Shown here: piece after piece, positions 17,571 through 23,492 of the stretch
How positions within the stretch are numbered: position 1 is the first letter of the stretch
Layout of the letters: each line of letters starts with the position of its first letter
Source of the DNA: an uncultured Spirochaetota bacterium
GTDB lineage: Bacteria; Spirochaetota; Spirochaetia; SZUA-6; Fen-1364
DNA length: 64,000 nt
Assembly: GCA_963820525.1 (NCBI GenBank)
Contig: CAWGAA010000001.1
Coordinates: forward strand, 192,001-256,000
Direction: 5' to 3'
Translations under genes and position numbers: made by a program
Notes under the pieces: model-generated
Databases searched by the model: none
Told to the model about the DNA's origin: nothing
What the model saw: the letters and a program-made list of their open reading frames with translations, nothing else

Positions 17571-19601
17571 ATGGCAGGTATTGACCTTCCCAAAAGCCCG
17601 AATGTGTTCCACCCGGAGAAACCGAGTGCAGTCGGGTCCCGCAACTCCCTCGCCCAGGAGTTCAGGGATCAGCAGGCTGAGGTCGACCTCCTTCTCAGCG
17701 AAGAAGTAGATAAAGTACTGAATCATCTCACCTCGAAACTACCAAAGGAAGTCGCCGAAAAACTCGACGTCATGGGTGGGTTGAAGGAGAAGCTGTACAA
17801 CTACTTCAACCAGAACTACCAGAACATGTTCAACCGCTACATCGTCACCACGGAAGACGAAATGGTGAAGAAGGTGCGGAACTTCATCGACAAGGAAGAG
17901 ATGAAGGCCCTCGCCCGCTACACTCCCAAGGAGATCGCGGCCCTCCTGGATCAGGTGGGCGGCATCGACAAGTTCAACACGGGTGAAATCGAGAAATCGA
18001 TTGTCAACATGTTCGGCCACTTGCAGGGCCACATCCAGCGCGGCGTCAACGATCTGGAGAACCTCACCAACAGCCTCCTCCGCCAGAAGACCGACGTCGG
18101 CGCGTTCATCAGGGGCGAGAACGCGTACTCCATCGTGAAGTGCTCCTTCAAGGACAACGCGATAAAGCCCAAGACCGTCACTGACGTGAAGCTCTCGGTC
18201 AACATCCTCGACTCCGAGCTCATCAGCCCCATCTTCCACTATCAGGTCACCGTGGAGTTCCTGATCAAGGACCTCATCTCCAAGAACATCATGGACCTGA
18301 TCGACAAGGAGATCGAGAAGCTCAAGGACCAGCTGGTGGACGAGGGCAAGGAAGAGCTCTCCGACGGCGAGATCCTCTTCGAAAAGATGGAGAGGGTGGA
18401 GAAGTTCACCTCGGACGACAAGGACGACCCCAAGTCCAAGAGGTACAGCTTCTTCGCCAAGAGCCTGATGGACAAGATCGAGGGTCTGCGCGCCGAGATC
18501 GATCCCGAGGAATACGATCCGGTCAACGTTCGCGAGAACCTGAAAAAGATCATCGACCTTGAGAACATCAGGAACAGGGGCTTCAACACGGCCATCAACT
18601 CCATCACCTCCATCCTCGACACCTCCAAGATGGGCTACCAGCACGTGGAGAACCTCAAGAACGCCCGCGAGCTGGTGCTGAGGGAGTATGAGGACACGGA
18701 TGCCAGCCAGGTGCCCGATGAGAGGTACTCCATCCGGCTGAAGTATTACGACCAGGCCCAGCTGCTGGAGGAGCGCAAGTCCTACGACGTTCAGGCCAAG
18801 AGCTTCGAGGTCGAGGTCCAGCACCTGTGGGACGTGCTCGAGATGGTCTATGAAGACTCCAAGTTCATGAAGGGCGTGGTCGATTTCAGCGACCTGGCCA
18901 GGAGAATGAAGGGAAAGATCAAGAGGAGGATCAAGGCCAAGACGGGAGATCCCCTCTACGAAGACATCGAGAAGTCGTGGGACGAGATCATCTTCGTCCG
19001 GCCGGGAGACACCGAGGTCGAGCGGATGAACCGCACCTACATCCCCGAAAAGGACAAGATCAAGAGACGGATCATCCTCATGAGGGACAAGCTGCAGAAG
19101 CTGTACGGCTACCGCTACCCGATCCAGCGCCGGGTCATGGAAGATCGGCTTACCTATCTCGAGAAGGATTTCCTGAAGTTCGAATACATGATCAACCCGT
19201 ACCACATCCAGCCCGGCCTTCTGCTCGACGTGGACATCACCTCGATCAAGAGGAAGAAGGCGACCCTTGACGGAATGTCCAACGTGCTCAACGAGTTCCT
19301 CTATGGAGTGTCGAAGGGATTCCAGGATGCGGCTTTCGCTTCCTTCTCCCGCAGGCGCTCCACGGTCAGGGCGGACATTGCCCAGTCCTTTGCCGGCACT
19401 TCCCCCGGGCAGGAGCAGCCAACCGAGGGCGCGCCCTCCAAGGGCTCCGAGTACCTCGACATGATCAATGTCCCCGCGGCGGCGGAGTCAAAGGCACCCG
19501 CCCGCACTCCGGGCGTCGTGGACGTGTCCAAGCGAGGACGGAGACCCGCCAGGAGGGGCAGGCCCCGGAGGGGCGGTGACGCGGGCTTGAGAGAAATCTA
19601 A
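17571..19601 (+). CDS. cfpA: cytoplasmic filament protein CfpA
   Basis: [25 protein letters not shown]...[19 protein letters not shown]...[17 protein letters not shown] matches treponemal CfpA as I recall it. Strong codon bias. Confidence 0.95.
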
Positions 19602-19619
19602 GTCCTCTCCATGAGATAG

Positions 19620-19657
19620 ATGGTGACCTTCTCACGGAGGTCACCATTTTCATTTTT
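19620..19657 (+). terminator. intrinsic terminator or attenuator after cfpA
   Basis: ATGGTGACCT-8 nt-AGGTCACCAT followed by T-rich runs. Confidence 0.7.
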
Positions 19658-19692: not shown

Positions 19693-20727
19693 ATGCAGGA
19701 ACAACTCCATCTGTTTGACGGGCTCAGCACACGCGATGGGTTCAACAAGTCTCTCAAGCACTTCAAGTTCATCGCGAATGTCATTGGCGAGTTCGAGAGA
19801 AACCGCAATCTTGCGGAAGTCCTGAGTGACAGCCTGGCGGAAAAGTCGATCGAGCCTGACCAGGTTCTTCCCACGATCTGCGCCATCCTCGTGGACAAAT
19901 ACCACTACGCGTACCGCTCGTACAACCTCGAGGAGAACTTCGAGGATTTCGACGCGGTAGCGGCGGAGGCGAGCAAGTGGAAGGCCGTGGACCTCGTCGT
20001 GGCCTACTTCCACCCCGAGCTCGGCGTCGTGGCGGTCAATCCCAAGAACCCTGCCCACTGGAGCGTGGTCCAGAGCCTGAAGAAGAACGAGCTGGTCACC
20101 GTTTTTGCCGGCGCGTTCCAGAAAACGACCACAAGCGATACGTACATGCAGGCGATCGAGCTCCTCCTCTCCATGATCCAGGGGGGGAAGGTCCGCACCC
20201 CCGCGGCGCTCACCAAGGGCCGCTTCGTGCAGAGGGCACCCTCCAAGGCGCCGGCTCCCGCGGCCGCACCCAGGCGCGTGGGCCGTCCAAAGTCAGCCAG
20301 AGCGGCTTCGGCTGCTCCCGCCGGCGCGGCACCTGCCGCGGCCTCGGTGGCAGCGGCCGCGGCCGCCGCTCCCGCAGCCGCTCCATCCGGCGCGCGCAAG
20401 AAGATGACTCCCATGTACGGGATCGTCGTGACGAACGAGCTGTTCCACAACGGGAACGTGGAGGCCTGGAAAAAGATCATCCAGAGCTATACGACGAAAT
20501 ACCCCGGATTGGAGGTGTACGTCTTCTACGAGGGCGAGCGAATCCACGACATCAACACCCTCTTCAAGTGGGGGAAGGTGAAGCACGGGAGCGCCATCAT
20601 GATCTCCGTGGCGGGAGACGATATCAGGGACGTCGCCAAGCTCAACCGTTACCTGAAACAGGGAGCGAGCCATATGTTCGAGGCTTTCCTGAAGGCTCCC
20701 GTCAACGCGATTCTCAATCTCTTTTGA
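19693..20727 (+). CDS. conserved hypothetical protein with Ala-rich linker and C-terminal HPr-like domain
   Basis: IVVTNELFH...LEVYVFYEGERI...GSAIMISVAGDD resembles HPr. His252 at 20446-48. Confidence 0.65.
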   Translation: MQEQLHLFDGLSTRDGFNKSLKHFKFIANVIGEFERNRNLAEVLSDSLAEKSIEPDQVLPTICAILVDKYHYAYRSYNLEENFEDFDAVAAEASKWKAVDLVVAYFHPELGVVAVNPKNPAHWSVVQSLKKNELVTVFAGAFQKTTTSDTYMQAIELLLSMIQGGKVRTPAALTKGRFVQRAPSKAPAPAAAPRRVGRPKSARAASAAPAGAAPAAASVAAAAAAAPAAAPSGARKKMTPMYGIVVTNELFHNGNVEAWKKIIQSYTTKYPGLEVYVFYEGERIHDINTLFKWGKVKHGSAIMISVAGDDIRDVAKLNRYLKQGASHMFEAFLKAPVNAILNLF

Positions 20728-20830
20728 GCGGCGTTTGCCTTTGGCAGGCCGCTGATTTAGCGCGGCGTACGGAACAGGTAAGCCGCCGCTGATACAAGAG
20801 CGGCGTTTGCCTCCGGCAAGCCGCCGCTGA
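20726..20830. repeat. three REP-like imperfect palindromes
   Basis: GAGCGGCGTTTGCCT at 20726 and 20798; AAGCCGCCGCTGA at 20780 and 20818. Confidence 0.7.
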
Positions 20831-20850: not shown

Positions 20851-23492
20851 ATGAAGAAGAACATCTATTTCTTCGCCCAGGGCGAAGCGAACACCAAGCC
20901 CCAGGTCCTCGAGAGGATCGGCATCCGCGGGCGTCTGGCCATGGAGCTTGCCGACCTCGATCTTCCCATACTCCCCGGTTTCATCATCGACGCGGACGTC
21001 GCCTCCCACCTCAAGGACTACAAGATCCGGCCGGCCCTCGAGCCGTGGTTCGACAAGCTGGCCAAGCTCACCGGCAAGAGCTTCGGTGACGCGGACAATC
21101 CCATGCTGGTGAAGATCGTCATCAGCCCCAACCTCGTGATCGCCACCTATCCGACCCTCCACAACTACGGCCTTACCGAAAAGACCCTCAACGGGTTCAA
21201 CGCCTTCGTCGGGGAAAACTTCGGCCTGCACGAGCTGCAGTTTCTCACCCGGGGAAACCTCGAGATCGAGCTCGCTATAGCCGAGATCGAGGGGCGAGAG
21301 AAGGAGGCCAAGGCCCTGAAGCAGTCGATCAAGCAGCTGGATGCCGACATGGATTCCGAGATGGACGCGAAACGAAGGAGGGAGTGCGTCACCAAGTACA
21401 TGGCAATGCTTCCCGAAGGCTTCTTCGCGGACTCGTTCTCCCAGCTGGAGATCGCGCTCAACAGGATCAGCCATCTTCTTTCCATAAACGACCAGAACCA
21501 GGAAGACACGGCGCTCCTCATCCAGCCCATGGTTTACGGAAACTATGGAAAGGATTCCGCATACGGGCAGTTCTACACCCGAAACATCGTCACCGGAGAC
21601 AAGCAGATTCAAGGCGAGTTCTTCCAGAGCAAGTTCAACGCCATCGGCGCCTCCGGGTCAGAGATCGAAAAGATCGCGAAGAACTACTTCAACGATCTGG
21701 AACGGATAGCCCACAGGGTGGAGGACCATTTCAAGGAGATCCGCTCCATCCGCTTCACCGTCGAAAACAAGAGGCTGTGGCTCATCGATCAGCGCTCCGT
21801 GATGACCAAGTCCACGCAGTCGGACATCCGCACCCTTCTGGACCTGCACTCCAGAAAGATCGTGAACGACGAGTACGTCATCAACCAGATAAAGCCGGGA
21901 CAGCTGAACGAGATCCTGCACCCCATCATCAACCTCTCCTCGGTGCAGAAAATGAAGAACCTCTCCGGCGGCATCGCGGGTGCCCCGGGGGCGGCCATCG
22001 GACGGGTGTTCTTCAGCACGGCCGGGCTTCTGGACGCATTCAAGAGCGCTCAAAAACTGGGCCAGGACACCAAGCTCATCCTCTGCCTGCCCGCAAGCTT
22101 CGCGGAGGACGTCAAGGCGATCGAGGTCGCCACGGGGTCCTCTCCACGGAAGGCGGCTATTCGGCCCACGCCTCCGTCGTTGCGCGCCAGTACGGGAAGG
22201 TGTCGTTTGTGAAGCCGGACATGAAGATCCGCGGCAACCGCGCTACCGTGGGGGACACCGTGATCAAGGAGGGTGATTACCTCACCCTGAACGTCCCCTT
22301 CTACGGAATTCCCTCCGTCTACCTCGGCAAGGCCGAGCTCATCGAGCCGGATCCCGAGGAGTCGGGGATGCTCGACTTCCTGAAGATCGTCCAGAAGTTC
22401 GTGACGCGCTTCCACGTGAGGACCAATGCCGACACTCCCCGGGACGCGGCTCTCGCGCGGACATTCGGGGCCCGCGGCATCGGGCTGTGCCGCACCGAGC
22501 ACATGTTCTTCGCCGAAAAACGGATCAACGTTTTCCGCGAGATGGTGATCTCCGGCTCCCTGGAGGAGAGGAAAAAGGCCCTGGCCAAGCTGCAGCCCAT
22601 GCAGCAGGCGGACTTCTACAAGCTGTTCAAGATCATGGAGGGAAACCCCGTCATCATACGGCTGCTCGACGCCCCGCTCCACGAGTTCCTGCCCCATAAC
22701 GAAACGGAGATGGAGCAGTTCATGAGCTACCTCAACGCGGGCAAGAAGGCCGACGCCCGGCTGCCCGAGAGGGAGGTGCGGGCGCGCTGCGATGCCCTGC
22801 ACGAGTTCAACCCGATGCTGGGCCACAGGGGATGCCGAATCGCCGTCTCGTATCCCGAGATCTACGAAATGCAGGTCCGCGGTATCTTCGAGGCCGTCTA
22901 TACGCTGAAAAAGGAAGGGATCAAGGTCCAGCCCGAGATCATGATCCCGATCATCATGAACGAAAACGAGCTGAAGCTCATCATCTTCGGCAAAAAGATC
23001 GAGGGCAAGCACATCCGCGGCCTCGTGGACGTCGAGAAGGACGTTCGGGACAGCTTCAAGGCCAGGCCAGCGGAGTACATGATCGGGACCATGGTCGAGC
23101 TTCCCGCCGCGGCGCTGGGAGCCGACCACCTGTCGCGATACGCCCAGTTCTTCTCCTTCGGGACCAACGATCTCACCCAGACCACGATCGGGCTCTCTCG
23201 CGACGACTTCAACACCTTCATGCCGGACTACACGCAGTTCGACCTTCTCGAGGGAAACCCCTTCCAGCTGCTCAATCCCCAGGTGAAAGAGCTGATCCAG
23301 ATGGCGGTCAAGCGCGGCCGGATGTCCCGGCCGGACCTCGAGGTGGGTCTCTGCGGCGAGCATGGGGCCATCCCGGAGAACGTGCGTTTCTGCATCGACG
23401 CGGGGCTCGATTACGTTTCCTGTTCCCCGTACTCCGTGCCCATCGCGAACCTGGCCATCGCCCAGATCATGATCGAGAAAGCGGCGAAATAG
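20851..23492 (+). CDS. ppdK: pyruvate phosphate dikinase-like PEP-binding protein with degenerate ATP site; frameshift at 22134-37
   Basis: QPMVYGN, GGYSAHASVVAR, GIGLCRTEHMF, FSFGTNDLTQ, GLCGEH. Adding one G to the G4 run joins the two ORFs. Confidence 0.85.

Follow-up and report, generated by a model that had tools for sequence, protein, structure and literature searches.

The window, a stretch of 64,000 nucleotides from an uncultured Spirochaetota bacterium (GenBank assembly GCA_963820525.1, contig CAWGAA010000001.1, positions 192,001 to 256,000), encodes at its positions 19693..20727 a protein of 344 residues that, judged by its homologues, is a member of the TP_0747 family (PF27497), a family restricted to spirochaetes. 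Structure prediction presents this protein as two cryptic HPr-type folds in tandem, with a linker between them and three helices (residues 14-69) in front. Its gene stands between cfpA, for cytoplasmic filament protein A, and a gene for a divergent paralogue of pyruvate phosphate dikinase (PPDK). This triad is conserved, and it is the main clue to function. The leading candidate, and a tentative one, is that the protein uses its HPr folds for docking or regulation, as an adaptor between the PPDK-like enzyme and the CfpA filament, and is not a component of the phosphotransferase system (PTS).

The gene and the parts of its product are laid out as follows.

19693..20727 (+), target open reading frame, 344 residues, TP_0747 family (open reading frame list and translation)
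19732..19899 (+), N-terminal three-helix segment, residues 14-69 (AlphaFold2 helices 14-35, 40-49 and 55-69; predicted local distance difference test score, pLDDT, 74-92)
19906..20190 (+), first predicted HPr-like fold, residues 72-166, with no His at the helix-1 N-cap (VIA-align, full model)
20233..20400 (+), disordered linker rich in Ala, Pro and Arg, residues 181-236 (pLDDT <50 at residues 185-234)
20404..20673 (+), second predicted HPr-like fold, residues 238-327, the feature first noticed (domain-only AlphaFold2 model, VIA-align and Foldseek)
20428..20472 (+), most conserved motif, V-T-N-E-L-F-H-N-G-N-V-E-A-W-K, residues 246-260, including His252
20560..20589 (+), second conserved motif, L-F-K-W-G-K-V-K-x-G, residues 290-299, in helix 2 and the next loop
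20674..20724 (+), C-terminal extension past the HPr core, residues 328-344, with a conserved L-x-L-F end

A first-pass annotation had marked 20404..20680 on the forward strand as an HPr-like domain. This interval corresponds to residues 238-329 of the 344-residue frame, and the peptide quoted with it is found there, MTPMYGIVVTNELFHNGNVEAWKK through DDIRDVAKL. The codon for His252 (cac) occupies 20446-20448, and the next residues are N-G-N. The full-length AlphaFold2 model, built from 47 homologues, divides the protein into three regions: an N-terminal domain (pLDDT about 90); residues 185-234, where pLDDT falls below 50; and a C-terminal domain with the order β-α-β-β-α-β-α. The C-terminal extension is modelled as a single helix (residues 327-332) followed by coil. 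The annotation had described an Ala/Pro/Arg linker of about 55 residues, which agrees with the composition and low pLDDT of residues 185-234. It had also described an "unknown" N-domain of about 180 residues: the size holds, and the domain is no longer anonymous, since residues 72-166 are predicted to be HPr-like.

The fold of the C-domain was examined in a model of that domain alone. AlphaFold2 modelling of residues 234-344 from 83 aligned sequences gave pLDDT 93.7 and a predicted template-modelling score of 0.88, with strands at residues 242-245, 274-279, 282-284 and 301-307 and helices at residues 253-269, 287-291 and 314-324. This is, in the predicted structure, the open-faced β-α-β-β-α-β-α sandwich of HPr. 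VIA-align, a search of 48,161 representatives of the PDB that is independent of Foldseek, returned HPr at ranks 1-4: 9s8b_C (Z 7.6, root-mean-square deviation 2.1 Å, 78 of 85 residues), 7ff5_A (Z 7.4), 1kkl_H (Z 6.7) and 1pch_A (Z 6.7). Across these four, the deviation is 2.1-3.0 Å and 78-82 residues are aligned to chains of 84-88, so that the match covers the full chain. Foldseek found nothing in the PDB at E≤0.001; HPr or Crh accounts for 30 of the 43 matches shown (E 0.019-0.22, probability up to 1.00, TM score normalised to the target up to 0.66), and MoaE is the chief non-HPr family among them. Because the two aligners agree and the whole chain is covered, "HPr-like fold" is, with good confidence, the best structural description of the modelled C-domain. 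The fold comparison that the annotation had proposed for residues ~238-330 thus came out in its favour, with HPr on top by both Foldseek and VIA-align.

The N-domain gave a similar result. In the full model, VIA-align matched residues 72-166 to E. coli HPr 9s8b_C with Z 8.4 (2.3 Å, 81 of 85 residues), followed by 7ff5_A (7.8), 1pch_A (7.5) and 1kkl_H (7.0); NPr is another structural match, to the N-domain with Z 6.4 and to the C-domain with Z 4.8. Against the four HPr chains the deviation is 2.3-2.5 Å with 79-81 residues aligned, again a whole-chain match. Residues 72-166 are therefore predicted to adopt an HPr-like fold as well. The residue before the first helix is D85, which is variable; no His is present there. 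Conserved residues of the N-domain include N78 and N116-P117-K118. Neither this second fold nor the conserved gene triad had been part of the first-pass annotation.

These structural matches might instead reflect convergence, in which case a small α/β domain would bind a metal, a small ligand or nucleic acid through its polar N-E-x-x-H-N-x-N-x-E patch, and its likeness to HPr would be uninformative. The scores leave some room for this: they lie below or near 8, a Z below 8 may reflect a common arrangement, and the lead of HPr is modest, about one Z unit, with the GlmM C-domain (6.4), the aIF2-α C-domain (6.1) and designed ferredoxin folds (5.5) close behind. Nor does hhalign detect sequence homology to HPr. 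However, HPr comes first by two aligners, for two separate domains and over the whole chain; the conserved patch is placed at the HPr active site; and the adjoining gene encodes an enzyme that uses phosphoenolpyruvate (PEP). We regard convergence as the least probable of the explanations weighed here.

Sequence comparison tells a different story. The PF00381 (PtsH) profile had no match at E≤1 to the whole protein or to the C-domain alone, and when all six frames of the 5.05-Mb genome were scanned with PF00381 the only match was a canonical HPr of 88 residues elsewhere, which carries G-M-H-A-R-P and G-K-S-I-M-G. Searches of Pfam, NCBIfam and PDB sequences with the protein and its C-domain returned noise only, and the family profile matched no solved structure among PDB sequences. 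Comparison by hhalign of the C-domain profile with 30 spirochaete HPr sequences, taken from genome loci, gave probabilities of 0.4-0.6%. Values stayed below 2% throughout for the N-domain against the C-domain, the N-domain against HPr, and the C-domain against HPr; thus neither internal duplication nor homology to HPr can be claimed from sequence. (The weak pairing that hhalign does make, of query 39-88 with HPr 30-81, shares its register with the structural match.) The alignment to HPr that the annotation had drawn by eye is, at the sequence level, not above chance: the claimed likeness survives as a fold (Foldseek and VIA-align) and fails as a sequence relationship (PF00381, PDB profile and hhalign), and the sequence profile does not place the domain in PF00381.

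To assess conservation, 1.84 billion cluster representatives were searched with a profile, and only 211 matched at E≤0.001. The alignment comprises 65 sequences, the query plus the 64 of 150 listed homologues that have both domains; fragments and single-domain pieces were excluded. These 64 diverse homologues are 27-50% identical to the query. H252 is kept in 64 of the 65, the exception (P0161) having Ser, and so the invariance that the annotation wished to see checked is nearly complete. All 65 keep N248, F251, N255, E257, A258, W259, L290, F291, W293 and G294; N253 is kept in 61, and G254 and K295 in 64 each. The C-terminal tail is also conserved (F332, 60/65; L343, 62/65; F344, 64/65). By comparison, the stretch that bears the linker (residues 172-240 here) ranges from 25 to 158 residues, and its composition varies. 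The two best-conserved blocks of the C-domain, residues 246-260 and 290-299, correspond to the N-terminus of helix 1 and to helix 2. HPr binds its partners through this same face.

N253 is the first residue of helix 1 in the domain model, which places His252 directly in front of it; His15 of HPr is likewise the residue just before helix 1. When His252 is set on His15, residues V256, W259, I263 and Y266 match the hydrophobic A19, L22, A26 and F29 of the genome's own HPr, and a shift of one residue destroys the match. Topology and helix periodicity in the model thus point to His252 as occupying the His15 position, with a conserved His at the helix-1 N-cap as in HPr. The HPr active-site signature is H-[STA]-R-P, including Arg17. 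Here the motif is H252-N253-G254-N255, with neither Arg17 nor Pro18. The annotation had read both points from the letters, the His at position 15 and the replacement of R-P by GN, and both agree with the model and alignment. Three further candidate sites in the C-domain were rejected: a Ser46-like site at position 289, which is occupied in the 65 homologues by Ser (27), Ala (20), Thr (17) or Asn (1); and H285 and H298 as conserved phospho-sites, both of which are variable.

The family itself is already catalogued. A search with the 344-residue protein found 2451 homologues at E≤1e-3, and the precomputed label PF27497.1 is on all 120 homologues listed (E 1.5e-221 to 1.1e-133). In the protein Atlas PF27497 is TP_0747_N (Pfam 38.1), placed in Spirochaetota, and it is found in 94-98% of the members of the nearest Atlas clusters. 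Membership is read from these labels of the homologues. The Pfam name implies that TP_0747 of the syphilis agent is a member. PF27497 is the target's own family and, also by its name, covers the N-terminal part; for the C-domain no Pfam family was listed. The source annotation of TP_0747-family proteins is "hypothetical protein" only, and the term "TP0747" is absent from the literature searched. What is new, then, is an HPr-type module that is cryptic in sequence, in a new architecture, and its genomic context.

That context was surveyed in 121 spirochaete genomes, with adjacency tallied from match coordinates. HPr is nearly universal (120/121). CfpA is present in 47 genomes and the TP_0747 family, by strong matches, in 48 (a weak match of 19.6 bits in G066 was discounted). 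All 47 CfpA genomes carry the TP_0747 family, and only G048 has the family without a detected CfpA. The PPDK-like gene lies directly downstream of the TP_0747 gene in 44 of the 48 genomes, a count that includes G078, whose PPDK-like copy is only 37% identical. The PPDK-like clade is present in 47 of the 48, and was not found in G105 (80% complete). The cfpA gene is directly upstream in 37 of 47 genomes, not adjacent in eight, and separated by contig ends in two. In five genomes (G010, G011, G039, G073 and G115) cfpA is elsewhere and the TP_0747 gene is still joined to the PPDK-like gene; the reverse arrangement, cfpA joined and the PPDK-like gene relocated, occurs in none of the sampled genomes. 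CfpA precedes the TP_0747 gene at 76 of the 80 best loci from a species-level collection of genomes, and the PPDK-like protein follows it at 79; the misses are mostly contig ends. The tightest bond within the three-gene unit is that between the TP_0747 gene and the PPDK-like gene. The window shows the full order, cfpA, target gene, PPDK-like gene.

The three genes also appear together in expression data. In Treponema denticola, Table 5 of one study lists TDE0842 (cfpA), TDE0843 (conserved hypothetical) and TDE0844 (putative PPDK) as repressed together (PMC3914990). From its place in the gene order, TDE0843 would be the TP_0747-family member.

Some loci depart from the common pattern in their details. 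In G120 (C125:5181-6074) the profile matches the TP_0747 homologue as two segments (positions 1-176 and 204-322) separated by a few bases, which suggests a frameshift or a split gene. G005 has three full-length CfpA-type genes (on C97, C69 and C102), and only the C97 copy adjoins the TP_0747/PPDK-like pair. In G086 the TP_0747 gene is followed by an open reading frame of 444 residues (L132:2415-3749), which was considered as a clue and set aside: it shows no likeness to the PPDK-like protein, matches no Pfam family, and its NCBIfam match (E 7.8e-4, 19 bits) is far below the cut-off.

One explanation of the gene order would confine the protein to the CfpA filament, as a bridging, anchoring or assembly factor of the ribbon, with the PPDK-like neighbour a mere passenger in the operon. 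The co-occurrence of the family with CfpA (47/47, with G048 alone lacking a detected CfpA) fits such a role, and two globular modules on a flexible linker would suit a cross-bridge; a 2004 title by Izard et al. reportedly speaks of "bridging and anchoring components" of treponemal filaments. But the adjacency to the PPDK-like gene is tighter (44/48, against 37/47 for cfpA) and survives the relocation of cfpA in five genomes, which a role in the filament only leaves unexplained. Moreover, 47 of the 48 genomes with the family also have a member of the PPDK-like clade, and a terminator-like hairpin lies between cfpA and the target gene in the window. A role confined to the filament is accordingly rather unlikely.

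The PPDK-like enzyme is a distinct paralogue. Its intact orthologue at locus L012 matches TIGR01828 end to end with 661 bits, below the cut-off of 843, and the nucleotide-binding domain has diverged (PF01326, 21.9 bits; cut-off 27). The window's genome has a canonical PPDK elsewhere (1139 bits). Compared with the canonical PPDK of its own genome, the PPDK-like enzyme is colinear at 33% identity and has no added domain. Among full-length matches across genomes to the L012 query, members of the clade are 45-63% identical (780-1265 bits) and canonical enzymes 36-40% (at most 565 bits). Four sequence features are invariant in 31 of 31 orthologues: EGGYSAHASVVARQYGK, RTEHMF, GTNDLTQ and a Cys. The first is the catalytic His motif, and the Cys is likewise catalytic. 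Both types of PPDK are present in four of five genomes examined; the 1.1-Mb genome G102 has the divergent type only, plus a PEP-utilising protein of 711 residues. In Treponema pallidum, TP0746 is regarded in the literature as the glycolytic PPDK (PMC10013896). In six genomes (G032, G104, G056, G119, G018 and G044) the PPDK-like gene lies in a frame of about 970 residues and the query matched only from residues 143-184 on, so that, compared with other lineages, the N-terminal region is extended or has diverged further.

A PEP-utilising neighbour invites a second explanation, that the protein is a phosphocarrier. His252 would be phosphorylated, most plausibly by the phospho-His of the PPDK paralogue, and the linker would carry the phosphoryl group to CfpA or to a factor in division or segregation. 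The paralogue belongs to the same family of PEP-utilising enzymes as Enzyme I of the PTS. His252 stands just before helix 1, is kept in 64 of 65 homologues, and when set on His15 brings the hydrophobic positions of helix 1 into coincidence with those of the genome's own HPr. The gene order fits too: the HPr gene precedes the Enzyme I gene in ptsH-ptsI, and here the gene for a PEP-utilising enzyme comes immediately after one for an HPr fold. All 31 aligned orthologues of the PPDK-like clade retain the catalytic His, RTEHMF, GTNDLTQ and Cys, the nucleotide-binding domain having diverged, and a canonical PPDK is retained alongside in most genomes examined (the four of five, and the window's genome).

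Several points weigh against a phosphocarrier. The C-domain lacks an Arg at +2 and a Pro at +3 from the His, the invariant acidic E257 is nearby, and PF00381 fails to match. To our knowledge PPDK lacks the helical subdomain by which Enzyme I binds HPr. In G102 the divergent paralogue is the sole PPDK-type gene besides that for the 711-residue protein, and presumably carries out ordinary PPDK chemistry. Moreover, since the N-domain is predicted to share the HPr-type fold yet has no such His, phosphotransfer does not follow from the fold alone. A phosphocarrier role is therefore possible but on the unlikely side, ahead of convergence or of a role in the filament only.

On the adaptor reading, each HPr-like module would engage a partner as HPr does, with a surface made up of helix 2 and of the loop and N-terminal end of helix 1. 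This surface carries the two motifs of the C-domain that are most strongly conserved. The partner of the C-module would most likely be the divergent PPDK paralogue, which is co-inherited and usually adjacent. The other module, or the linker, would then hold the PPDK-like enzyme at the CfpA filament, and His252 would be a key residue of the adaptor interface or site. Complex prediction for the L012 PPDK-like protein (881 residues, alignment of 31) with the L012 C-domain (111 residues, alignment of 65) gave ipSAE 0.00 in both runs, a result without controls that counts neither for nor against binding.

Several points weigh against an adaptor. The best Z scores, 7.6 and 8.4, are within the range typical of models without a clear relative, so a simple two-layer fold could be convergent. 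Neither domain can be tied to HPr, or to the other domain, by sequence with hhalign. Within one spirochaete family (f39), three genomes (G076, G086 and G103) have a TP_0747 gene that adjoins neither cfpA nor the PPDK-like gene. A search for fused proteins of 603-2000 residues matching residues 236-344 found none, evidence that the tool itself calls weak. A near-invariant His at the position of the HPr active site exceeds the needs of a plain adaptor. Finally, binding of the adaptor to the PPDK-like enzyme and to CfpA, like any effect on the activity or location of the enzyme, is something we infer.

A bolder version of phosphotransfer deserves mention, although it is something of a long shot. 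The TP_0747 protein and the PPDK paralogue might form a second phosphorelay of the HPr/Enzyme I type, independent of the PTS, in which the phospho-His of the enzyme, charged from PEP, passes its phosphoryl group to His252 on a flexible arm for delivery to the CfpA filament or as a binding switch. If so, the cytoskeleton, cell division or organisation of the nucleoid in the spirochaete would be tied to the PEP/pyruvate state of the cell.

Comparison with HPr (PtsH, PF00381) itself shows what is shared and what is not. Shared are the β-α-β-β-α-β-α order, the whole-chain match in predicted three-dimensional structure, the His before helix 1, the conserved surface on helices 1 and 2, and a gene directly upstream of one for a PEP-utilising enzyme. 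Unlike HPr, the target has no detectable sequence similarity to that family; H-N-G-N instead of H-[STA]-R-P; S, A or T (27, 20 and 17 of 65) at the position in the Ser46 region; a helix 1 that is five residues longer; an extra C-terminal extension; and a position as the C-terminal part of a two-module protein of 344 residues. The ptsH-ptsI unit provides a parallel in arrangement, with an HPr-fold gene, a few to about 120 bases, and then a PEP-utilising enzyme with a phospho-His swivel domain. Here, in contrast, that enzyme is a full-length PPDK type (ATP-grasp, swivel and PEP barrel) and not Enzyme I.

The window's genome has its own canonical HPr beside HPr kinase (G000:C1:2662392-2663204; loci L001 and L003), and its own Enzyme I, an open frame of 586 residues (G000:C2:410475-412064; L002 and L143). 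An ordinary phosphorelay of the PTS type thus coexists with the cryptic HPr-fold protein.

In NPr, Crh, FPr and DhaM the HPr fold serves as a regulatory or docking module, as proposed for the target. These are HPr-like proteins and domains outside the sugar PTS, and one of them, Crh, acts by binding although it has no such His. All four, however, are recognisable members of PF00381 served by enzymes of the Enzyme I type, and the TP_0747 family is not. The searches made here turned up no other example of two cryptic HPr folds in tandem, and the literature searched holds nothing that ties HPr-like folds to CfpA or to the PPDK-like clade.

Treponemes and related spirochaetes are characterised by CfpA filaments, and we know of no identified components of the filament system other than CfpA. 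The predicted folds offer a structural handle on a protein that accompanies cfpA in every sampled CfpA genome, and whose closest genomic partner is a specialised PPDK paralogue. For T. denticola, loss of cfpA is described as leading to chromosome condensation, filamentation and lost infectivity (PMC3398590). The present results suggest, as a testable idea, that a bacterial cytoskeleton may be linked to central carbon metabolism, either physically or by way of a phosphoryl group. They also provide an example of HPr-type folds that are invisible to sequence profiles.

The neighbouring genes and spacers in the window are these.

17571..19601 (+), cfpA, cytoplasmic filament protein A, 676 residues (NCBIfam NF040882 cfpA_ASD, 1184.7 bits against a cut-off of 500)
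19618..19649 (+), terminator-like hairpin with a 14-bp stem and T-rich tail, between the cfpA stop and the target gene (pattern scan)
20726..20830 (+), three tandem GC-rich hairpin-forming repeats of 34-38 nucleotides, in the spacer before the PPDK-like gene (repeat families D1 and D2)
20851..23492 (+), divergent PPDK paralogue (open reading frames 20851..22212 and 21384..23492, in two frames)

The hairpin at 19618-19649 is a consensus match only, since the scanned region has four such sites and its shuffled versions average 3.9; it may be a partial terminator that sets expression of cfpA above that of the two downstream genes. The repeat unit in the second spacer reads GAGCGGCG...GCCGC, and the 131-nucleotide repeat region has a predicted RNA folding energy of -61.7 kcal/mol (z = -2.9 against shuffles). 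The repeats at 20726-20830 could be an element resembling repetitive extragenic palindromes, or a regulatory structure.

The PPDK-like gene of the window is interrupted by a frame break at a run of four G residues (22134-22137); the catalytic His codon is at 22167-22169. Contigs from two other public runs (X2, 524 nucleotides; X5, 287 nucleotides) have an extra G at the run, which restores a single frame as in the PPDK-like orthologues. An assembly error at the homopolymer, or variation between strains, is the probable cause of the break, and the gene is probably not dead.

The linker was also considered as an AT-hook feature of the family. This was rejected: GRP or RGR occurs in 22 of 47 close relatives and in only three of the 65 diverse homologues. 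In the window itself, AT-hook-like GRP cores are present both in the tail of CfpA (RRGRPRRG, 19540-19598) and in the linker of the target protein (RRVGRPK, 20260-20300).

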